DNA from: Natronospirales bacterium
Lineage (GTDB): Bacteria > Pseudomonadota > Gammaproteobacteria > Natronospirales > JAIVGZ01
DNA: 64,000 nt
Direction of reading: 5' to 3'
Assembly (NCBI GenBank): GCA_020201335.1
Contig: JAIVGZ010000033.1
Coordinates: 29,329-93,328, forward strand
Under the pieces are notes generated by a model that was not told the origin of the DNA, searched no databases, and saw nothing but the letters and a program-made list of their open reading frames with translations. The stretch's first letter is position 1. Each line of letters starts with the position of its first letter. Both the position numbers and the translations under genes were made by a program. Shown piece after piece: positions 3,435-43,634 of the stretch.

Positions 3435-4838
<1,404 letters not shown>

Positions 4839-4839
4839 C

Positions 4840-5961
4840 GTGCCTGCGCCGCTCGGCGCGCTGACGCCCGCAGCGTTCCTCCATGATTATTGGCAGAAGC
4901 GGCCGCTGCTCGTCCGAGGGGCGTTCCCTGGATTTGGATCCGCGCTCGACGGCGACGAACTCGCCGACCTCGCGTGCGACGCGGATGTCGAGAGCCGCAT
5001 CGTCAGCCGTGCCGATGGCCGCTATGAGACGCGTATCGGGCCGTTCTCCTCCGAAGATTTCGGCGCCCTCGGCGACCGCGACTGGACGCTGCTCGTACAA
5101 GATGTCGACAAGCAGGTGCCGGAGCTCGTCACCGTACTCGACCAGTTCACGTTCCTGCCCGCCTGGCGCATCGACGACCTGATGGTGTCGTGGGCAGCTG
5201 ACGGCGGCTCCGTCGGTCCGCACGTAGATCAGTACGATGTATTCCTATTGCAGGGTTCCGGAACCCGCCGCTGGCAAGTCGGCACGCTCGATGCGTCCGG
5301 CTTCGTCGCAACCGACGAATGGTTGCTGCAACCCGGCGACATGCTGTACCTGCCGCCCGGGCTGCCGCACTGGGGCGTAGCTGTTGGCCCGTGTATGACA
5401 TGGTCTATCGGGTTGCGCGCGCCTTCCGCCGCCGAATTGGTTTCCGATTTCTGCGAACGGGCATCGGCACCGCTCACGGACGCAGAGCGTTATTCGGACC
5501 CTGACCTCACGGCAGACGAAGGCGGCGACGGACGGCTGTCGGAAGCGGCGCTGGCACGCGCGCGCGCGCTGCTCGACGCGACGCTGGCAGCCACGCACGC
5601 CGACTTGCCGCGATGGTTTGGCGAACTCGTGACCGCACCGAAGGCCTGGCTGCACCCGGTACCGCCTGACACCCTGCTCGACCGCGAAGCGCTTGCGGCG
5701 TGCGCCGACACGCAGCGCTTGGTGCGCGACCCTCGCACCCGTATCGCCTGGTTCCCGATGCCCGACGGCACGCTCCGCGTCTGCGTCGACGGCCACTCGG
5801 AAGTCGTGCCTGCGGCGCTTGAGCCCCTGGTGCGGCGGCTGTGCGGGCCGCGTGAGTTTCCAGCGGGTACGCTGACGCGTTATCTTGACGACGACGGTGC
5901 GGCCGCGCTGGTGCTGCGGCTATACAACGGCGGACAGCTGACGGAGGCCGATGATGATTGA
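4840..5961 (+). CDS. roxA: Cupin-4/JmjC ribosomal protein L16 arginine hydroxylase (YcfD/RoxA-like)
   Basis: FLHDYWQKRPLLVRG...WRIDDLMVSWAADGGSVGPHVDQYDVFLLQGSGTRRWQVG aligns with E. coli YcfD as I remember it. A GTG at 4840, just after the purB stop, gives 373 aa. The ATG at 4801 would overlap purB. Confidence 0.8.
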   Translation: MPAPLGALTPAAFLHDYWQKRPLLVRGAFPGFGSALDGDELADLACDADVESRIVSRADGRYETRIGPFSSEDFGALGDRDWTLLVQDVDKQVPELVTVLDQFTFLPAWRIDDLMVSWAADGGSVGPHVDQYDVFLLQGSGTRRWQVGTLDASGFVATDEWLLQPGDMLYLPPGLPHWGVAVGPCMTWSIGLRAPSAAELVSDFCERASAPLTDAERYSDPDLTADEGGDGRLSEAALARARALLDATLAATHADLPRWFGELVTAPKAWLHPVPPDTLLDREALAACADTQRLVRDPRTRIAWFPMPDGTLRVCVDGHSEVVPAALEPLVRRLCGPREFPAGTLTRYLDDDGAAALVLRLYNGGQLTEADDD

Positions 5962-32424: not shown

Positions 32425-33222
32425 TCACTTCGTTGGAAGCGTCGCGGTGGGAATGTCCTCAGGATCCATAATCAGCGGGCGCTGCGGCATATAATCAAGC
32501 AACATGTCTGTTTCCTTCTTGACCACTTTGTAGCACTCGCAACTCAGGGTTTCGAGTTTCTTCCGGTCAAGCACCTTGATTAACCCACGCGAGTAGGAGA
32601 TTACGCCCAGGTGTTGCAATTTTATCGCGGCTTCGGTGACCCCTTCGCGGCGAACGCCAAGCATGTTGGCGATAAACTCCTGCGTCATCGTCAAATGGTT
32701 ATGTGACAAGCGATCCATGGAAAGCAGGAGCCAGCGGCAAAGCTGCTGGGCGATTGAATGATGGCGGTTGCAGACTGCGGTCTGCGAGACTTGAGTAATC
32801 AAGGCCTGTGTGTAGCGCAGCATCAGCAGCAGCAACTGGCCGTGGCGGTCGAACTCCTCTCTCACCCGAGGCCTTGGGAGCCGATACGCGTAACCGGCGC
32901 TCTGTACCAATGACCGGCTAGGGGTACTCTCCCCGCCCATAAACAATGTGATGCCCAGCAAGCCCTCGTTTCCCACCACCGAGATTGCAGTCGAATCCCC
33001 GTTTTCCATCATGTACTGCATGGAGACGATGGAGTCCGTGGGAAAGTAAACGTGTTGCATGGGGCGTCCGGATTCATACAGGAGCGCGCGCAACGGCAGC
33101 GGCACCAGCTCCAAATGCTGAAACAAACGCCCCTGAACTTCTGGCGACAAAGCCGCCAGCAGATGATTCTGCTGCGGATTAGGCGCGGCAGACTCGTCCT
33201 GAACTTTCTTTCGTGGCGTCAC
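32425..33222 (-). CDS. Crp/Fnr family transcriptional regulator
   Basis: Contains NHLLAALSPEV, a cNMP-binding-like beta-roll, and a C-terminal HTH (TQEFIANMLGVRREGVTEAA). G+C is clearly lower than in the flanks. Confidence 0.85.
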   Translation of the reverse strand: MTPRKKVQDESAAPNPQQNHLLAALSPEVQGRLFQHLELVPLPLRALLYESGRPMQHVYFPTDSIVSMQYMMENGDSTAISVVGNEGLLGITLFMGGESTPSRSLVQSAGYAYRLPRPRVREEFDRHGQLLLLMLRYTQALITQVSQTAVCNRHHSIAQQLCRWLLLSMDRLSHNHLTMTQEFIANMLGVRREGVTEAAIKLQHLGVISYSRGLIKVLDRKKLETLSCECYKVVKKETDMLLDYMPQRPLIMDPEDIPTATLPTK

Positions 33223-33851
33223 TGGTTTATCCCCCCAGTTCTCTTTTTCATTTCAGCAGAGATTACGCGACCATTGTCATCTTGCAAACTGAGACGCTCG
33301 ATGATGTTCCGATAGCTCTCAGCGTCCCGGTCCTGGCTCAATTTGAAGACCGTATCCAAGTCCGTCACTTCGATTTCGAAAGCGACGATCAGTTCCATCA
33401 TTTTCTCCCGGAAGCCTTCCGGGAGGTTATCAAACACCGTTGGAGATTGCGGGTCGTTGTTTTCGAAATGGAGGCTGGTCTTGCGGAGAACATCTATCAA
33501 TTGCGCGTCACCCAGGAAACTGATGACGCCTTTCGCGTACACGCTCATGTAGTTCCACGTGGACGGCAAGTGCGGATCGCTATACCACGAGGCGCTCACA
33601 TACGAGTGTTCGCCGATGAAGACCGCGAGCACATTCGGATTGGACTCGAAGGCCTCGCGATGGTCCGTACCCTTCATCAGGTGCCCACTCAACCACATGC
33701 GTCCGCCGCGCTCCTCCATCAACAAAGGAATCTGGCTCGCAACCGGCATCCCATTGCGATCGCATCCCGTCAGCAGCGCGAACGGATGCTGAAGGATGAA
33801 CTGTTTGATGACCTCCGCGTCATGTTCCTTATGGTATGGAAGGTCATACAT
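33219..33851 (-). CDS. paiB: FMN-binding negative transcriptional regulator, PaiB family
   Basis: Starts MYDLPYHKEHDAEVIKQFILQHPFALL, then ..SQIPLL..GHLMKGTDH..KLSQDRD pattern. 210 aa from the ATG at 33851. Low G+C. Confidence 0.8.
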   Translation of the reverse strand: MYDLPYHKEHDAEVIKQFILQHPFALLTGCDRNGMPVASQIPLLMEERGGRMWLSGHLMKGTDHREAFESNPNVLAVFIGEHSYVSASWYSDPHLPSTWNYMSVYAKGVISFLGDAQLIDVLRKTSLHFENNDPQSPTVFDNLPEGFREKMMELIVAFEIEVTDLDTVFKLSQDRDAESYRNIIERLSLQDDNGRVISAEMKKRTGGINQ

Positions 33852-34248
33852 CGGGCGGTGCCTGGTACAGGCGGGTGACCGCAGCACGGCCCCACCGAGG
33901 GACGGTGACGATAAACACATCGCCGTAACGGTCCTCGGAAATCTCGCCGACATTTCGGCCGGACAGCGCGGCGACCAACACGGGTACCGTGTTGCTGTGC
34001 CCGACAATCACGATCGTGTCCGAGCGGTGCCGCGAGCGGATCTTTTCGATGAAGCGTTCTGTCTCGGCCGCATCGTAACGCTGTATCGGCAGCGACAGCC
34101 GTTCGGCGAGCGGCGTCGCAGTTTCGCCGGTGCGGCGGTACTGGCTCGCGTAGATTGCGTCGATGCGGGCCGATGCCAAGAGCTCGGCGAGGCGTTCGGC
34201 ACGCGCCTGTCCGGCCTGCGAGAGCGCCGGGTCGGTCGGTACGCGTCG
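33844..34248 (-). pseudogene. Histidine phosphatase (SixA/PhoE-like) lacking its N-terminal catalytic RHxE segment
   Basis: The in-frame stretch RRVPTDPALSQAGQARAERLAELLASARIDAIYASQYRRTGETATPL...IVIVGHSNTVP matches the family from the DPxLS motif onward. A TAG sits immediately upstream. There is no RH(A/G)E motif or signal peptide, and the first possible start is a TTG at 34179. Confidence 0.55.
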
Positions 34249-34563
34249 CTACTCACGGTTGCGCTCACGGCGTTCGTCCACGACCCGGAAATCGCCCTCG
34301 ACGGTAGTGGAACCCGCCTCCTTGTCCGTGCGCACACCGTCATCGCCGGCTTCGCGCCGCCAACGCCGCTTTATGTACCACCAGCGGATGGCGAACACCA
34401 GCCAGATAATCGCAATGAGGCCAAGCAGCGTCAGCGCGACGAATGCGCCGACGAACAGGCTGGCCACGAGCAACAGCGCTGTCGCTACGATGGCGATGAT
34501 ACGAACAAGGACTTCCAGGACCCCGCCAGAGCGGGTGGAACCCGGGGGTAGCTGATTTGTCAT
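34249..34563 (-). CDS. Small membrane protein (2 predicted TM segments, charged C-terminal tail)
   Basis: 104 aa, MTNQLPPG..VLVRIIAIVATALLLVASLFVGAFVALTLLGLIAIIWLVFAI..RRWRRE. It starts 7 nt after the CHAT gene stop. No family recognised. Confidence 0.5.
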   Translation of the reverse strand: MTNQLPPGSTRSGGVLEVLVRIIAIVATALLLVASLFVGAFVALTLLGLIAIIWLVFAIRWWYIKRRWRREAGDDGVRTDKEAGSTTVEGDFRVVDERRERNRE

Positions 34564-34570
34564 CCGGCGA

Positions 34571-35680
34571 TTATAACCCGCCCCACAGTTGCCATCCGCT
34601 CCAGTGGTACGGGTGCCGGTACGGCTCGCCGTGGTCGCCGCGCGCGAACGCCCGCTGTACCCGCGTAACTGCGGCGTCCGGACGCAGGCCGCGTGCAAGC
34701 TCGGCAAAAAGTGCGGCGACGAACTGTGCGCTCGCCGCATCGTCGACCCGCCACAGCGTCAGCAGCGTCATCCCAACACCCACCCGCGCGCCCGCCTCGG
34801 CGAACCCAGCTCCATTTGCGGTTTCGCACGCGGAGAGCACGACCAATTCGGCAGTGAACTGCAGGTGCAGCGCGTCGACCGGCGTGAACGGTGCGGCGTC
34901 CGTATCAGCCAACTCGAGCGCGAACATGCCGTCTCGCTGGACGGTATGAGTGGCCACCAGAATGAAGCGCGCGCCAGTGAGCGTGCCGTCGTATGCGGCC
35001 AAGCGCAGCCGCGCCAGCGCACCGGGCCCTGATAGCAACTCAGCGGGGCCACCGAGCGCGGCCGCAGCGAGCGCAATTTCGGCGCGGGCGGCCGGCAATG
35101 CATCCGGATCGTCTGCGGCGTTGCGTGCGAAACCCAGCAGAGTTGGTGGGCGTCGCCTCGCCGCTGCGGCACGGGATGCGGCGACCGCCGCGCTGCGCTC
35201 GGATAGCGCGTGCACGATTGGGACATCGGTGATAATTGCGAATGGCAGTTCGGACAGTGCGCCATCCGTCGCAAATACCCACGGACCAGTACGGGGAAGG
35301 TGCGGCTGCACGGCGGCGAGCAGCGCACGCAGCAAGCCAACTGAGCGCGCGGGCGGTTCGCGACCGGCGATGACCGCCGTGCGCACTGCTGCGACTGCTG
35401 CCACGACCTCCGCGCCATCCGCGACGCGGCGCGCCCACGGCGCCGGCGTGCGACCGTACGCAATGAGATCATCACTCGCGGCGACCCAGCCGATATAGGT
35501 AGACGGCGCCGGCAACTGCTGCGCGAGGTGCGGGCGAAGCCAGCTTGCGCGCTCGCGTTCGGCGACTGCGATTGCGATCTCGACCTGCCCTGCTGCGACG
35601 AGCCTGGCGACCTCGTCGCGCCAGTCGGCGCCTGCGGTACACGCCCAACACAGCGAAAGCAGAAGCCAAAAGAGTCGCAT
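34571..35680 (-). CDS. Secreted minimal CHAT domain (caspase-like) protein
   Basis: Start at MRLFWLLLSLCWACTAGA (signal peptide). CHAT dyad context FILVATHTVQRDG and ELVVLSACETANG, plus C-terminal HPYHWSGWQLWG. 369 aa with no TPR or other partner domains. Confidence 0.7.
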   Translation of the reverse strand: MRLFWLLLSLCWACTAGADWRDEVARLVAAGQVEIAIAVAERERASWLRPHLAQQLPAPSTYIGWVAASDDLIAYGRTPAPWARRVADGAEVVAAVAAVRTAVIAGREPPARSVGLLRALLAAVQPHLPRTGPWVFATDGALSELPFAIITDVPIVHALSERSAAVAASRAAAARRRPPTLLGFARNAADDPDALPAARAEIALAAAALGGPAELLSGPGALARLRLAAYDGTLTGARFILVATHTVQRDGMFALELADTDAAPFTPVDALHLQFTAELVVLSACETANGAGFAEAGARVGVGMTLLTLWRVDDAASAQFVAALFAELARGLRPDAAVTRVQRAFARGDHGEPYRHPYHWSGWQLWGGL

Positions 35681-35754: not shown

Positions 35755-37227
35755 ATGACCGCCAAGGACCGTGTCGCGTGGGCCGGCCTTGCCGCCGGGC
35801 CCATCCTCGCTGCCCTCGCCTACGCAACGGTGCCCGATGCCGCGGCCGGTGGGCTCGACCACCCCGGCCGGGTGACCGTCGCCATCGGCGTATGGATGGC
35901 AACCTGGTGGATGACCGAAGCGATTCCGCTGCCGGCGACTTCTTTGTTGCCGGTGGTGCTGTTTCCGTTGTCAGGCGCGTTGGACGCGACGCAGGCATTG
36001 CGGCCTTACGCGTCCGAAATCGTGTTCCTGTTCATGGGCGGTTTCATGATCGGCCTGGCAATGCAGCGCTGGGACCTCCACCGACGCATCGCTCTCGGCA
36101 TCGTGCGGGCGGTCGGCACGGCACCCGCCCGCCTCGTGGCCGGATTCATGCTCGCGACCGCGTCACTGAGCCTCTGGATTTCAAACACCGCCGCGACTGT
36201 TATGTTGCTGCCGGTCGGCATCAGCGTAATCGAGTTATTGCGACGGCACCTGGACCCCGGGGATGCGGTGGCAGCGTCCAATCTACGCAACTTCGCAACC
36301 TGCCTGATGCTCGGCATCGCGTATGGCGCGTCAATCGGTGGACTCGGCACGCTGATTGGTTCGCCGCCGAATCTGGTACTCGCGAACTTTGCCCGCGCCG
36401 AACTCGACCTCGACATCACGATGCTCGACTGGATGCGCGTTGGCATGCCGCTGGTCGCATTGTTGCTGCCGGTGACCTGGCTCTACCTGACGCGCGTGGT
36501 TTTCCCGTTGCGGCTACGGATACCTGAAGCGGCCGGCACCGAGATCCGCGGGGAGCTTTCGACGCTCGGCCCGATGAGCACCGGCGAACGCACGGTTGCC
36601 ATCGTGTTTCTATGCACGGCGCTGGGCTGGATACTTCGTCCGCAGTTGGCCGCGTGGACCGGGCTCACCGCGCTGTCTGACGCGATGGTTGCGATGCTCG
36701 GCGCACTCGCGCTGTTCGTGATCCCGGTCGATTGGCGGGCACGGGTGTTCGCACTTGATTGGGACACCGCGCAGCGCCTGCCTTGGGGCATCCTATTGTT
36801 GTTCGGCGGTGGCCTCAGCCTCGCAGCGGCAATCAGCGCCAATGGCGTTGACGCATGGCTCGCGTCCGGCTTCGCGGGCCTTGAAGGTGTCCGCACGCTG
36901 TGGGTGCTGCTTGCTGCGGCGACGCTGGTGGTGTTCCTGACCGAGCTTGCGAGCAACACCGCTGTTGCCAATACCTTCATCCCGATCCTCGCCGCGGCGG
37001 CGATTGGCCTCGGCATTGAGCCGATGCCGGTGCTGTTCGCCGCAGCGCTGGCCGCTACCTGCGCGTTCATGCTGCCAGTCGCGACGCCGCCGAACGCAAT
37101 CGTGTTCGCCTCCGGGATGGTGAGTATCGGCCAGATGATGCGTGCGGGCGCAGGACTTAATTTGATTGCGATTGTGGCAATCGCATTGGTACTGAAGATA
37201 TTCGGAGAATGGTTGCTGCCGTTTTAA
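35755..37227 (+). CDS. DASS/SLC13 family anion:sodium symporter
   Basis: Start at MTAKDRVAW. Two SNTA hairpin motifs (WISNTAATVMLLPVG and ELASNTAVANTFIPI). 490 aa. Confidence 0.85.
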   Translation: MTAKDRVAWAGLAAGPILAALAYATVPDAAAGGLDHPGRVTVAIGVWMATWWMTEAIPLPATSLLPVVLFPLSGALDATQALRPYASEIVFLFMGGFMIGLAMQRWDLHRRIALGIVRAVGTAPARLVAGFMLATASLSLWISNTAATVMLLPVGISVIELLRRHLDPGDAVAASNLRNFATCLMLGIAYGASIGGLGTLIGSPPNLVLANFARAELDLDITMLDWMRVGMPLVALLLPVTWLYLTRVVFPLRLRIPEAAGTEIRGELSTLGPMSTGERTVAIVFLCTALGWILRPQLAAWTGLTALSDAMVAMLGALALFVIPVDWRARVFALDWDTAQRLPWGILLLFGGGLSLAAAISANGVDAWLASGFAGLEGVRTLWVLLAAATLVVFLTELASNTAVANTFIPILAAAAIGLGIEPMPVLFAAALAATCAFMLPVATPPNAIVFASGMVSIGQMMRAGAGLNLIAIVAIALVLKIFGEWLLPF

Positions 37228-37236
37228 TATCGCTGG

Positions 37237-37758
37237 CTAGTCGATGACGCCGCAGAAGAGCCGAGCGCCGCCACCGCCAAGCGGTTCCGGATGGTCGGCG
37301 TGGTTGTCGCCGCCTGCGTGCACCATCAGCGCGCGGCCTCTGACCTGGTCCATGGTGAGCCGCGGCGCCAACACCGGGTAATCAGCAGTGCCGTCCGCAG
37401 CGACATACAGCGCCGGCAGGTCGCCCAGGTGCCCGTCGCCCCAGGGCGTGCCGTGCAACCCACTGCCCTCAGGGTCTAAGTGGCTACCGGCGGCACCGCC
37501 GGGGACCGTGCGGCCTTCAGCACGCGACGACGCGCAGCTAGCGTTTTCGTGCACGTGGAAGCCGCGGATGCCCGGCGGCATGCCGTGCAGTCGCGGGCTG
37601 AACAAGAGGCCGTGCGCTGTCGTCGAGACCGTCACATGACCGACAACCGGGCCCAGCCCATCGCGGTCGACTGCGCGCATCAGTACTTCGACGCCGTCAT
37701 CTGCCGCAGCACCGGTGGTGGACACCGCGAGCGCTGCAGCTGCGAATAAATACTTCAT
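37237..37758 (-). CDS. sodC: Periplasmic superoxide dismutase [Cu-Zn]
   Basis: Contains [44 protein letters not shown] and [12 protein letters not shown], close to E. coli SodC. 173 aa from MKYLF with a signal peptide. An ATG at 37773 is an alternative start. Confidence 0.92.
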
Positions 37759-38525
37759 TGCGTTCGTGACCATATCAATTCCGGGTAATCGGGCAGGATT
37801 GTCGGCGATGCGAGTAGTGTATCGCATGCATCGCGGTCACCGACAAGTACCGGAAAACACCCGCGGTTCACGCACTCAGCGGCATGGAGCCGCAGCTTCG
37901 CCGGCGGATCGATTAGCGAAACGAAACGGCCGTTCCGCACCACGACTACCGTATGCACTGCGCCGAGCGAATAGAGTGCCGCTGAGTCTTCGGTCCAGGG
38001 TTCGGACGGGTCGAATGGGGAGTGGTTTTCTGCGCGTACCGTCAGTCGGTAGCAGTGCTCACTGAGGCGCTGTGCCTGGATGATGACTTCGCCGGTGATG
38101 AGACGGCGAGTGCGCACCTGGACGCAAACCACGCGGCCGTCTCCGTCGCGCAGCGGTTGGGTCTCGCGGGCCGCATCGAACACGAAGCGTTGGCGTAACG
38201 GCTCATCGCACGCCTGCGCCAGCGTGAACGGAACGATCTGCAACTCGCGTTCGATCGCCTCGCGCTGATGTCCGGGGTCCCGCTCGATCGCCTGCAGGCA
38301 ACGCACGCACACCTCGACCACGGTGTCCGGCGGCCCATCGACCAGGCACTGCATTTGCTGCGCGTACGACACGCCTTCCGGTGCCCAGACGCTATAACCT
38401 CGCGGGTACAATCCGCCGAAGCTCCAACGCCGCTGGCGCGTGGTCTGCGCTCTCCGATACGGATAGATGTTGAAGCCGTCGTACAGCAGCGTTTCTGCGA
38501 CGCGCCGGGCCGGCTCCAGGTTCAC
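37755..38525 (-). CDS. Uncharacterised protein B (256 aa), translationally coupled to protein A and sodC
   Basis: The GTG start lies inside a GTGA overlap with the upstream stop, with GGAGG 7 nt upstream. N-terminus is [13 protein letters not shown]. No signal peptide, TM segment or motif that I can assign. Confidence 0.65.
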
Positions 38526-39100
38526 CGGTGGGCCTCCACCGGCCGTTCGTCCAGCAGTTCTGTGACCGCCTGCTCCCAGCGCGGCAGCCCGTGGTCGCTC
38601 CGGTAGCGTTGCAGGCGCTCAAACACGGTGCGCGGCAACCGAAGCCAGACAGTGTCCGGATAATGGTGGTTCATCATGTCCTGCCAGACGCGCACGGGCA
38701 GCATGTACCGGGCTTCCTTGGTCCATGGCACCTGCTCAGCCCGCAGGGTTCCACTGGCATCCGCGTAGATCACCGTACCGTTGAACAGAAATTCGAGCGG
38801 AACCTCACCATGGGGAAGGCGGTGGAAATATCGGGTCGCCGCAACATTGAAATCGAAGCTGCAGTGCAAAAGGAGCTTCGCGATACATGAGCCATTAAAC
38901 GGCGGCACATGACAGGCAGCCTGAGTCCAGTACAGGTTTTCGCGTATGCCTGCGCGAATCCGCACCTGGGCGTCGAGCGAAATGCTGCGCACCTGCGTAG
39001 ACGGGTCCGCGTTGATCACGCACAAGCGGACCGCCAGCTGCGGTGAAACGCTGCGCTGCTCCGCTTCGATGGACTCGACCGCAAACAGGAGTTCAGGCAT
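38522..39100 (-). CDS. Uncharacterised protein A (192 aa), first gene of the A-B-sodC unit
   Basis: ATG with GGAG 6 nt upstream. Contains QVPWTKEARYMLPVRVWQDMMNHHYP. No signal peptide or TM segment, and no family assignable from memory. Confidence 0.65.
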   Translation of the reverse strand: MPELLFAVESIEAEQRSVSPQLAVRLCVINADPSTQVRSISLDAQVRIRAGIRENLYWTQAACHVPPFNGSCIAKLLLHCSFDFNVAATRYFHRLPHGEVPLEFLFNGTVIYADASGTLRAEQVPWTKEARYMLPVRVWQDMMNHHYPDTVWLRLPRTVFERLQRYRSDHGLPRWEQAVTELLDERPVEAHR

Positions 39101-39226
39101 TGAAATCTCCGAAGGAAATTGAAGCTATCGTAAAGATTACGTGACGCTTTTGTATGTACGGTTGGCAACAGATTTTAAGGTATACCGCGTCAACGGCGGG
39201 CACCACCGGGGAAACACCTGAATTCG

Positions 39227-40345
39227 TCAGCGGCCTGGCGGTGCCAGCCGCAGCACGCGGCCGTCCTGCGCGAGGTCAGTCAACACGAAGATTGAGCCAT
39301 CGGGGCCGACGCGGACATCTCGCACTCGCTCGTCGCGGTCGTGCAGCAACAACTGCTCGCGTTTGACTACACCGTCGGAGATACGCATGCGGTGGACGCC
39401 CCGCTCTTGCGTCAGCGCCGCAACCAGAATGTCGCCGTCCCATTCCGGAAACAGCGTGCCGCGATAGATGACCATTCCAGCCGGCGCGATTGACGGCGAC
39501 CAGTGGTGTGCCGGCGGCATGAAACCGGACAGTGAACGGAACGGTGTGATACGGGCGCCCGAGTAATCGAGACCGAAAGTCACCACCGGCCAGCCGTAGT
39601 TGCCACCCGGCTCAAGTACATTCAATTCGTCGCCACCGCGCGGGCCGTGTTCAATCGCCAGCAGGCGCTGATTCGCTGCATCGTAGAGCACGCCCTGCAC
39701 GTTGCGGTGGCCGTAGGTGAAGACCTCGGGCGCGTGGTCGGCGCGGCCGACGAATGGATTGTCTTCCGGATAAGAGCCATCAAGGTTCAGGCGCACGATG
39801 GTCCCGATGTGGTTGCCAGGATCCTGCGCCTGCTCGCGAAAATCGAAGCCGTCGCCGAGCCCAAGGACGAACGAGCCGTCCGGCAGGAACGCGATGCGGC
39901 CACCGTAATGTGCATTGCCGCGCTTCATCGGTTGCGCGGTGAATATTGTCTGGACATCGCGGAGCCGGTCGCCGTCGAAGCGCGCGCGCGCCACACAGGT
40001 ATTGTTCTGCTCCCGCGTACCGCAGGCGTAGCTGAGAAGTAAGGTGCCGCTCTGCTCGAAGTCCGGCGCCAACGCGACCTCGAACAGCCCCGCTTGACCG
40101 CCGCTATGCACTTCGGGAACACCTTGCACCGGTTCCGCGCGCAGCGAGCCATCGGCGTCAATGAGGCGCAGGCGCCCCGGCCGCTCAGTGACGAGCATAC
40201 GACCGTCGGGCAGGAACGCGAGCGACCAGGGGTGCTCGAGGCCGGACGCCACCGTTTCGACGCGGTAGTCGATTGGCTGCGCCATGGCAGCGCCGGCGAT
40301 CAGTGCAACCGCAAGGCCAGCCGCTGCACGAATGGACGCGGTCAT
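39227..40345 (-). CDS. yliI: PQQ-dependent soluble aldose sugar dehydrogenase (YliI-like)
   Basis: Contains LEHPWSLAFLPDGRMLVTERPGRLRLI and GHRNVQG. Signal peptide starts at MTASIRAAAG. 372 aa. Confidence 0.85.
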   Translation of the reverse strand: MTASIRAAAGLAVALIAGAAMAQPIDYRVETVASGLEHPWSLAFLPDGRMLVTERPGRLRLIDADGSLRAEPVQGVPEVHSGGQAGLFEVALAPDFEQSGTLLLSYACGTREQNNTCVARARFDGDRLRDVQTIFTAQPMKRGNAHYGGRIAFLPDGSFVLGLGDGFDFREQAQDPGNHIGTIVRLNLDGSYPEDNPFVGRADHAPEVFTYGHRNVQGVLYDAANQRLLAIEHGPRGGDELNVLEPGGNYGWPVVTFGLDYSGARITPFRSLSGFMPPAHHWSPSIAPAGMVIYRGTLFPEWDGDILVAALTQERGVHRMRISDGVVKREQLLLHDRDERVRDVRVGPDGSIFVLTDLAQDGRVLRLAPPGR

Positions 40346-40770
40346 CGACCGGGCCTCAGCGCGATGCGTGCGAACACCCAAGTCGCGAAGCCGACGGCGA
40401 GCATCATCGTCAGCGTGCCGACCGTACTTCGCGTCGCGCCAATGAAGGTCGGCATCGGCAGCAACGCGTCAATGAGTTGGAACGAAACCCAGATGCCGAC
40501 CGCGCCGGCGGCGAAAAACAAGATGCCGGTCAGTGCGGGCATCAGCCGCGCGAGTAAGGCGGCAAGTGGCAGCGCGACCAACAGCGTCGCGAAGACGATG
40601 GTGCCGAAAACCGGCGTGAACATGCCGAGGTCGTGCAGCGTTGTGGCCAGCCGAGTGCCTAACGATATATCGACGCCGAGGCCGGAGATCGCCGCGAGGT
40701 TGAACTGCGTCTGCACGATTGAACCGAGCGCCGTCGCGACGAGCACTGCGCCGACGAAGCTGAGCAGCAC
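40342..40770 (-). CDS. Hypothetical membrane protein (about 4 TM segments)
   Basis: Hydrophobic 142-aa ORF from the GTG at 40770. The ORF-track extension to 41013 reads through the tRNA and is rejected. No clear SD, so the start is uncertain. Confidence 0.45.
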   Translation of the reverse strand: MLLSFVGAVLVATALGSIVQTQFNLAAISGLGVDISLGTRLATTLHDLGMFTPVFGTIVFATLLVALPLAALLARLMPALTGILFFAAGAVGIWVSFQLIDALLPMPTFIGATRSTVGTLTMMLAVGFATWVFARIALRPGR

Positions 40771-40781
40771 GCGCTTCGAAA

Positions 40782-40871
40782 TGGCGGAGAGGGTGGGATT
40801 CGAACCCACGAACGGGTTTCCCCGTTGCCGGTTTTCAAGACCGGTGCCTTCAACCACTCGGCCACCTCTCC
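40782..40871 (-). tRNA. tRNA-Ser (anticodon UGA)
   Basis: Minus strand reads GGAGAGGTGGCCGAGTGGTTGAAGGCACCGGTCTTGAAAACCGGCAACGGGGAAACCCGTTCGTGGGTTCGAATCCCACCCTCTCCGCCA. It folds with a 7-bp acceptor stem, anticodon loop CTTGAAA, a long variable arm, a TTCGAAT T-loop and an encoded CCA. Confidence 0.95.
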
Positions 40872-40890
40872 TTAAAAAATAGACTCTACA

Positions 40891-41019
40891 CGTTGCCGGT
40901 TTTGCTCGGCCCTTCCCTGGGCCTCGCCCTCGCTTCGCTCGGGTCCGCCTGCGGCGGCACCAAATCGCTCCCGGCGATTTGGTCAAGACCGGTGCCTTCA
41001 ACCACTCGGCCACCTCTCC
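40891..41019 (-). pseudogene. Interrupted, 3'-truncated pseudo-copy of tRNA-Ser(UGA)
   Basis: 40983-41019 is identical to tRNA nt 1-37 (through CTTGA of the anticodon loop). A structured 79-nt insert follows (40904-40982). Then 13 nt (40891-40903) are identical to AAAACCGGCAACG of the anticodon-stem 3' side. No variable arm, T-arm or acceptor 3' strand is present. Confidence 0.8.

Positions 41020-41034: not shown

Positions 41035-43634
<2,600 letters not shown>

Follow-up and report, generated by a model that had tools for sequence, protein, structure and literature searches.

What do two cytoplasmic proteins have to do with a periplasmic superoxide dismutase, when the three genes are joined by overlapping start and stop codons? 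The question is raised by three minus-strand genes, here called A, B and sodC, in a 64-kb stretch of contig JAIVGZ010000033.1 of a Natronospirales bacterium (the window; coordinates given without a locus name are window positions). Comparison of protein sequences and gene orders identified A and B as shortened derivatives of two successive accessory genes, DUF6084/PHG068 and PHG069, from clusters encoding group 1h [NiFe] hydrogenases. The genes and the DNA element in front of them are the following.

39127..39169, minus strand: conserved promoter-like element, composed of GTTGCCAACCGTACATACA (39169-39151), an 18-nt spacer and TACGAT (39132-39127)
38522..39100, minus strand: gene of protein A, 192 amino acids (aa); ATG start codon with GGAG 6 nt upstream
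37755..38525, minus strand: gene of protein B, 256 aa; GTG start codon with GGAGG 7 nt upstream
37237..37758, minus strand: sodC, 173 aa; ATG at 37758, overlapping the stop codon of B as ATGA

Gene layout

Direct reading of the sequence agreed with the initial annotation in the 4-nt overlaps between the three genes, the start codons and GGAG or GGAGG sequences of A and B, and the ATGA junction of B and sodC. The GTG start codon of B lies within a GTGA overlap shared with the stop codon of A, and the starts of A and B match those of their homologues. The longest open reading frame (ORF) of sodC begins at 37827; the alignment with SodC homologues sets in at MKYLF instead, and no Shine-Dalgarno sequence of its own precedes this start. 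The 126-nt spacer up to the upstream gene (stop codon at 39227), the TTGACG sequence and the palindrome GGTATACC at 39179-39186 were also found as described. The composition of A and B is host-like (GC3 0.73-0.75, compared with 0.70-0.84 in the other called ORFs of the window), and by inspection their N-termini are unlike a signal peptide. The window matches a Xanthomonadaceae MAG, in whose annotation A is a "DUF6084 family protein" and B a "hypothetical protein" (MCA1798973.1).

Descent of A and B from group 1h hydrogenase accessory genes

Protein A belongs to the family DUF6084, as the initial annotation had tentatively proposed (Pfam PF19562, 203.7 bits with a cut-off of 25, E 3.2e-60). Two stretches of A matched the model, the better one spanning model positions 77-209 of 213. 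With PHG068, encoded on pHG1 of Cupriavidus necator, A shares 41% identity, and it lacks an insertion of about 24 residues that is carried by the hydrogenase-linked DUF6084 proteins (alignment A3). The residues invariant throughout the family are retained (C80, D83, W58, W126, and W139; alignment A3).

For protein B, the family DUF5947 had been suggested. This assignment (PF19372) was ruled out, because B matched no Pfam family even at E<=10; nor did it match any NCBIfam family. DUF5947 is encoded by a separate gene, which precedes DUF6084 in hydrogenase clusters and is absent from the window. Instead, B corresponds to the N-terminal beta-rich domain of the PHG069-type protein, the product of the gene that follows DUF6084. 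It was matched to PHG069 by tblastn (3e-32) with 32% identity to PHG069 residues 7-283, and it contains the LYxGYxLYPYR motif together with the invariant Cys, His, and Cys of this family. The residues kept in B are C60, H191, C218, R33-W34, and the PVLVG block (alignment A1). Missing from B are an insertion of about 40 residues found in hydrogenase-linked members, the helical C-terminal region (APESPGDLFDGTEIDE...), and a C-terminal domain of about 75 residues (A1). Like every short form, B stops at column 312 of A1, which makes it about 190 C-terminal residues shorter than PHG069 (476 aa). The missing C-terminal region is covered by nearly all of the top 150 representatives of the family.

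A word-indexed search yielded 36 B homologues with lengths of mostly 320-440 aa. When 1.84 billion cluster representatives were searched with a profile (E<=1e-3), 4,181 clusters at 50% identity were returned. The PHG069-type proteins themselves are without a Pfam or NCBIfam model. Judged by these searches, B belongs to a large, unnamed family that lacks a curated model.

The gene order points to the same origin. HhyS-HhyL-HhyE(NifU-like)-DUF5947-DUF6084-PHG069-HupD, with the HycI/HupD protease last, was found in four independent hydrogenase clusters (the P0012 locus, L002/L003, L017, and pHG1), which bears out the group 1h origin proposed for the A/B pair in the initial annotation. On longer contigs, long-form B homologues were located solely within group 1h [NiFe]-hydrogenase clusters. 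The run on pHG1 (C. necator H16) consists of a NifU family protein, DUF5947, DUF6084, a hypothetical protein (476 aa), and a hydrogenase maturation protease. The pHG1 record carries H16_RS locus tags only; the PHG numbers were mapped from the pHG1 gene order, and we take them to be PHG066 for NifU, PHG067 for DUF5947, PHG068 for DUF6084, PHG069 for the hypothetical protein, and PHG070 for the protease. The DUF6084 gene and the PHG069-type gene overlap by 4 nt in all four clusters examined, and hence the A/B overlap is inherited from hydrogenase clusters. In canonical clusters, hupD in turn overlaps the B-family gene by 4 nt; this slot is occupied by sodC in the window and by an aminotransferase gene in the related locus L016.

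The usual setting of DUF6084, with DUF5947 before it and a PHG069-type gene after it in a group 1h cluster, is retained by A only on its downstream side: a PHG069-type gene follows as usual, whereas the window contains no DUF5947, hhyS, hhyL, or hyp gene. The lack of hydrogenase genes had been noted before and held for the whole 64 kb; neither a hydrogenase nor a hyp gene was detected in the window, in L006 (21 kb), or in L007 (14 kb). Compared with PHG068/PHG069 of pHG1 (group 1h/5, actinobacterial-type), the pair in the window thus shares gene order, the 4-nt overlap, and the family-wide invariant residues. It differs in that hydrogenase, hyp, NifU-domain, and DUF5947 genes are not nearby, both proteins are shortened, and sodC instead of hupD lies downstream.

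The domain of about 75 aa that is missing from B (RVRLRP...DDDPGRDLG...GHRFFF..EEVE) is carried either C-terminally by PHG069-type proteins or N-terminally by the HycI protease. Examples, which were compared with the C-termini of P0012, P0023, and PHG069, are given below.

L002, 11059-11895: protein containing the domain
L010, 949-1836: protein containing the domain

Such an exchange of the Rosetta-stone type suggests that the PHG069-type protein and the HycI protease work together, and would therefore tie the PHG069-type family to the maturation protease. In the pHG1 locus (L011), the hydrogenase small-subunit gene (4214-5269, H16_RS31840) carries the RefSeq label "hydrogenase expression protein HypE". 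This label is probably a misannotation, because the gene product is 76% identical to that of an L002 gene bearing the NiFe small-subunit Pfam domains.

Group 1h hydrogenases are oxygen-tolerant enzymes that oxidise atmospheric H2, and HhyE/PHG066 is a NifU-like putative iron-sulfur protein needed for Hhy activity. To our knowledge, their clusters always include a block of conserved genes of unassigned function (PHG066-069 in C. necator), and equivalents of PHG068 and PHG069 are expected in the Hhy cluster of Mycobacterium smegmatis. For the hypothetical proteins encoded downstream of HhyE, among which PHG067/MSMEG_2717 was named, a role in electron transfer or assembly has been considered, and PHG067 was proposed as an electron acceptor (PMC6883350). 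There is debate about what PHG066/HhyE and PHG067 do, and PHG068 and PHG069 have not been studied (PMC6883350). A literature search found no mention of a function of DUF6084 or DUF5947, nor of PHG068/PHG069.

Structure models of both proteins were of good predicted quality. The AlphaFold2 (AF2) model of A (pLDDT 82.5) displays an Ig-like beta-sandwich followed by C-terminal helices, and that of B (pLDDT 85.5, pTM 0.84) is beta-rich with an N-terminal helix. A function based on the fold could be assigned to neither. For A, Foldseek returned generic Ig-like/E-set structures only (the cytoplasmic domain of Kir channels, arrestin, ApaG; TM about 0.3), and for B the comparison with the PDB yielded no match (best E 0.02, TM about 0.12). 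Searching the PDB by sequence and by profile returned nothing for either protein.

Short-form loci without hydrogenase genes

Including the window, 13 loci were found that hold short forms of these genes and no hydrogenase gene on the contig. They form a rare and small group within the Gammaproteobacteria and are referred to as orphan loci. Their gene orders are listed below; "<" precedes genes of the opposite strand, and " // " stands where co-orientation or adjacency is interrupted.

Window: GSDH // A-B-sodC // <symporter // CHAT
L013: GSDH-A-B (contig ends)
L018: DUF2231-<UPF0093-CtaG-A-B (contig ends)
L001: GSDH // small ORF-A-B // <symporter // CHAT (without sodC)
L012, L014: COX-associated genes-CtaG-small ORF-A-HycI-like (contig ends)
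L006, L007: COX1-...-CtaG-small ORF-B-iron permease-sodC-CHAT
L004: CtaG-small ORF-B-aminotransferase-sodC
L016: CtaG-small ORF-B-aminotransferase (contig ends)
L015: small ORF-B-sodC-CHAT
L005, L008: B-sodC-CHAT (contig starts at or inside B)

L013 and L018 are close relatives of the window, with 92% and 89% identity in A, respectively. In a neighbour-joining (NJ) tree calculated without support values, the orphan B sequences form one clade, which is the sister of the hydrogenase-linked pair L017/P0006. Taken at face value, this grouping points to a single origin of orphan B. A metagenome scan with the short-form alignment returned two loci, both of them long-form and hydrogenase-linked.

The orphan module is headed in most of these loci by a small ORF of 64-80 aa, which overlaps the start of the next gene.

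L001, 1073-1267: small ORF
L004, about 520-714: small ORF
L006, 9810-10004: small ORF
L007, 3385-3579: small ORF
L012, 2332-2574: small ORF
L014, 549-791: small ORF
L015, 1-195: small ORF
L016, 595-786: small ORF

A profile of this small ORF matched residues 5-57 of the protein at the HhyE position in L017 (E 2.5e-9). The next best matches among 2,090 six-frame background ORFs were the HhyE N-termini of L002 and pHG1. The similarity thus covers the first 55 or so residues of the HhyE-position proteins. Unlike HhyE/PHG066, in which the NifU domain (PHG066 residues 93-158) is located downstream of the matching part, the small ORF contains no NifU domain. The window, L013, and L018 have lost it by deletion; the leader in the window retains the sequence found ahead of the small ORF in L001. 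The order of genes in the orphan module thus parallels that of HhyE-(DUF5947)-DUF6084-PHG069-HupD, each gene being trimmed.

The last member of this series was recognised by tblastn and Pfam in two loci, in which a HycI/HupD-like gene follows A; none was found in the window.

L012, 3148-3657: HycI/HupD-like gene
L014, 1365-1817: HycI/HupD-like gene

The encoded proteins matched Pfam HycI (34 bits, cut-off 23) and TIGR00072 (89 bits) and remained below the cut-off of the hupD subfamily. They contain Ala and Tyr in the two columns that hold Asp and His in all four hydrogenase-linked HupD proteins (alignment A5). We take these columns to be the metal ligands Glu16 and His93 of Escherichia coli HybD. 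In HybD numbering, two of the three ligand positions are replaced and Asp62 is kept. The HycI-like protein may accordingly represent a pseudo-protease or a protease with a new specificity.

The module is not constant in its composition. Protein A is missing from seven loci of the B-sodC type: in L004, L006, L007, L015, and L016 its absence was read from the junction of the small ORF and B, and in L005 and L008, whose contigs start at or inside B, from the lack of a tblastn match only.

A conserved DNA element upstream of the module

The element in front of A lies some 27 nt ahead of the start codon of A, and in the window it would give a leader of about 27 nt that includes the GGAG sequence. 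Its consensus is GTTG(C/G)(C/G)NA(C/A)CG(A/T)ACATACA, N17-18, TNTA(C/G)GAT. Across eight aligned orphan loci, 22 positions were invariant (alignment A4), and direct reading showed the element in L016 and L018 as well. A pattern search of the loci other than these two found it once in each of the seven orphan loci whose upstream sequence was available, and the hydrogenase-linked loci gave no match; the window holds one exact copy. The gene farther upstream varies, being CtaG in L018 and GSDH in the window, L013, and L001, and the break is always located just above the element. From its conservation, we infer that the element acts as a promoter or an operator. In six loci (L001, L004, L006, L007, L016 and, by homology, L015), the TA(C/G)GAT hexamer ends 6 nt before the ATG of the small ORF; because of this short distance, the mRNA may be leaderless there.

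The element fitted no known sigma factor or regulator consensus, and a generic sigma-70 scan detected no promoter at the element or elsewhere in the A-B-sodC region. The sole terminator-like match in the region lies inside B and did not exceed the level of shuffled sequences. An Rfam search of the leader gave nothing at E<1 beyond a chance-level match. The palindrome GGTATACC, which had attracted attention in the initial annotation, was rejected as a conserved element, since GGTATATC is found in its place in L013; the conserved element at 39127-39169 is a different one from this palindrome at 39179-39186.

Selection on the short forms

The ratio of nonsynonymous to synonymous substitution rates (dN/dS, Nei-Gojobori) was low for all three genes of the module. 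The following values were obtained.

A, window and L013: dN/dS 0.10 (dS 0.47)
A, window and L001: dN/dS 0.13
B, window and L001: dN/dS 0.13
B, L006 and L007: dN/dS 0.06
Small ORF, L006 and L007: dN/dS 0.05
Small ORF, L012 and L014: dN/dS 0.34 (the weakest value)
Flanking GSDH, symporter, and sodC genes, for comparison: dN/dS 0.12-0.20

A, B, and the small ORF are under purifying selection and are thus maintained and not decaying. The possibility that they are non-functional relics of a deleted hydrogenase cluster, which chanced to adjoin sodC, is highly improbable on these grounds. It would agree with the variation in gene content between lineages, with the truncation of every member relative to the hydrogenase-linked forms, and with the occupation of the 4-nt-overlap slot of hupD by sodC or an aminotransferase gene. 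However, the ORFs are intact in 13 loci although identity in B falls to about 40%, most pairs have a dN/dS of 0.05-0.13 with dS reaching 1.5 among the pairs compared, a dedicated upstream DNA element is conserved, and the overlapping start and stop codons are preserved.

The same selection, together with the family-wide invariant residues kept in A and B, would also suit a split hydrogenase system, in which a group 1h enzyme encoded elsewhere is still served by A and B and the position of sodC is incidental. The HycI-family gene after A in L012 and L014 is in favour of such a system, as is the fact that the genome is seen over 64 kb only. We nevertheless consider it unlikely. DUF5947 is absent, HhyE is cut to a 64-aa peptide without the NifU domain and wholly deleted in the window, and B is without the C-terminal regions that nearly all of the top family representatives possess. 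The HupD-like protein lacks two of its three metal-ligand positions, and there are lineages that do without A, without B, or without HupD. In addition, the promoter-like element is specific for the orphan loci and does not occur in the hydrogenase clusters.

sodC and its neighbourhood

The third gene encodes a SodC protein that matched Pfam Sod_Cu (1.7e-29) and the NCBIfam SodC equivalog NF007628 (174.8 bits, cut-off 165). By inspection, it contains the motifs HVHE, GSHLDP, GHLGDLP, and VHAGGDN, two Cys residues, and a signal-peptide-like N-terminus. From these matches, sodC is classified as an ordinary periplasmic Cu,Zn superoxide dismutase equivalog. Co-transcription of A, B, and sodC in the window is likely because the genes overlap, sodC is without a Shine-Dalgarno sequence, and no promoter or convincing terminator was found between the genes.

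Among the orphan loci, sodC is located at most two genes downstream of short-form B in seven of the eight that are informative because this stretch is visible, L001 being the exception. It is directly adjacent to B in the window, L005, L008, and L015 (within 0-15 nt in L005 and L015), whereas one gene lies in between in L004 (aminotransferase) and in L006 and L007 (iron permease).

L006, 10836-11222: low-affinity iron permease, 128 aa (PF04120), start overlapping the end of B
L007, 4411-4788: low-affinity iron permease, 128 aa (PF04120), start overlapping the end of B

The linkage noticed in the initial annotation therefore recurs in relatives in the form of sodC near B, and it is missing from L001. 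The functional partnership that had been derived from it is weakly supported: the recurrence of sodC speaks for it, and the lack of sodC in L001, the inserted genes, and the absences of A speak against it. In its strict form, with A and B as dedicated SodC partners, for example in redox handling or in the supply of copper or zinc, such a partnership would explain the tight translational coupling. The ATGA overlap in the window and the short distance between B and sodC in the relatives would fit this explanation, as would the copper theme of the ancestral neighbourhood (the Caa3-type assembly factor CtaG and COX1). Nevertheless, we regard it as improbable. SodC is exported and metallated in the periplasm, and A and B have no export signal; L001 keeps A and B at a dN/dS of 0.13 without sodC; iron-permease or aminotransferase genes separate B from sodC in L004, L006, and L007; and A is missing from the seven B-sodC-type loci (in L005 and L008 by lack of a match only). 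Moreover, sodC is an ordinary equivalog. The known kind of superoxide dismutase partner is represented by CCS and by periplasmic copper suppliers such as CueP. In contrast to these, A and B contain neither an HMA nor an SOD-like nor a CueP domain.

Conservation of gene order is not confined to the module and sodC. The neighbours in the window are listed below.

About 35755-37227, plus strand: Na/sulfate or citrate-type symporter, convergent to sodC and 9 nt from its stop codon
34571..35680, minus strand: secreted CHAT-domain (caspase-like) protein (Pfam CHAT, 5.6e-31; signal peptide)
34249-34740: small membrane protein, after the CHAT gene
33844-34179: histidine phosphatase, after the CHAT gene

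A CHAT homologue directly follows sodC in L005, L006, L007, L008, and L015 and is found after the symporter in L001. The symporter splits the sodC-CHAT pair in the window, and the same insertion is present in L001. Past sodC, the order of CHAT, small membrane protein, and histidine phosphatase is shared by the window and L006, and upstream of the module synteny extends from COX1 to CtaG, as expected from shared ancestry. A role in anti-phage defence, for which the CHAT neighbour gave occasion, was discarded, as PADLOC matched neither A and B nor the CHAT protein nor the small ORF. In L008, sodC was matched in two overlapping segments (709-1201) in different reading frames, which suggests a frameshift due to an assembly error or a pseudogene.

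Proposed role of the A-B pair

With a probability of roughly 55%, we propose that A and B are an exapted cytoplasmic scaffold or chaperone module that is co-transcribed with sodC and is not a dedicated partner of SodC. In a small gammaproteobacterial clade, the segment HhyE-DUF5947-DUF6084-PHG069-HupD has been trimmed to a mini-module consisting of the N-terminal peptide of HhyE (deleted in the window), a short DUF6084 protein, and the N-domain of PHG069, with a HupD-like protein in one lineage. This mini-module lies between the cytochrome oxidase/CtaG genes (in the window, the GSDH gene) and the sodC-CHAT block. The conserved element would serve in the window as the promoter of a single A-B-sodC transcript, on which the translation of B would be coupled to that of A and the translation of sodC to that of B. 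The products of A and B are envisaged as a cytoplasmic pair of beta-sandwich scaffolds or chaperones, and B may bind a metal via the invariant C60, H191, and C218. Released from hydrogenase work, the pair would be co-expressed with a periplasmic superoxide dismutase in aerobic or oxidative-stress physiology. It would not act on SodC directly, because SodC folds and gains its metals in another compartment.

As a working analogy, A and B may resemble the HoxL/V/O/Q/R/T-type accessory proteins of O2-tolerant [NiFe] hydrogenases, which are small, non-catalytic, and thought to aid metallocentre assembly in air; the analogy is a functional one, and no similarity in sequence or fold was detected.

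Several points weigh against this proposal. A hydrogenase encoded elsewhere in the genome may be served by A and B, since only 64 kb are visible. Subsets of the module differ by lineage (small ORF and B; small ORF, A, and B; A and B; small ORF, A, and HupD-like), and such variation is also the expected appearance of progressive decay. The link to sodC may be historical rather than functional, because L001 is without sodC and synteny extends beyond sodC and the module on both sides. The assignment of the element as a putative promoter is based on its conservation, and neither of the predicted folds of A and B reveals a biochemical activity.

What the locus adds to the known gene set is a reduced, apparently hydrogenase-detached version of accessory genes that are themselves uncharacterised. 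Three trimmed genes are kept under selection with a promoter-like element of their own and no hydrogenase nearby, which suggests that the activity of these accessory proteins is not strictly hydrogenase-specific. That sodC and cytochrome oxidase assembly genes recur beside the module is a weak pointer to the physiology of oxygen or of metal centres. A wider interpretation, to which we give less than an even chance and which we put forward tentatively, is that the mini-module is a portable, hydrogenase-free core of the group 1h accessory machinery, re-used together with SodC and cytochrome oxidase assembly genes. Such a core might, for example, act as a chaperone protecting the assembly of metal centres against oxygen or reactive oxygen species, or dock partners onto the aerobic respiratory chain. 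If this were true, the clade would offer a simple hydrogenase-free system for learning what the uncharacterised genes of the atmospheric-H2 clusters do. The short forms mark which portion of each protein is the indispensable core, and for the PHG069 family, with its approximately 4,200 clusters and no curated model, they provide a handle on a widespread group of proteins without assigned function.

Other features of the window

Upstream of the module, a tRNA-Ser(UGA) gene is located between serS and the GSDH gene, and the ORFs called across it are at least partly artefactual, being due to the tRNA sequence. GC content is lower (0.51-0.60, compared with 0.64 in the entire window) in a stretch holding two ORFs, which were assigned by eye only.

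41035-42306: serS
40782-40871, minus strand: tRNA-Ser(UGA)
40342-41013 and 40659-40865: ORFs across tRNA-Ser
32425-34007: stretch of lower GC content
33219-34007: PaiB-like ORF
32425-33222: ORF encoding a Crp/Fnr-like regulator

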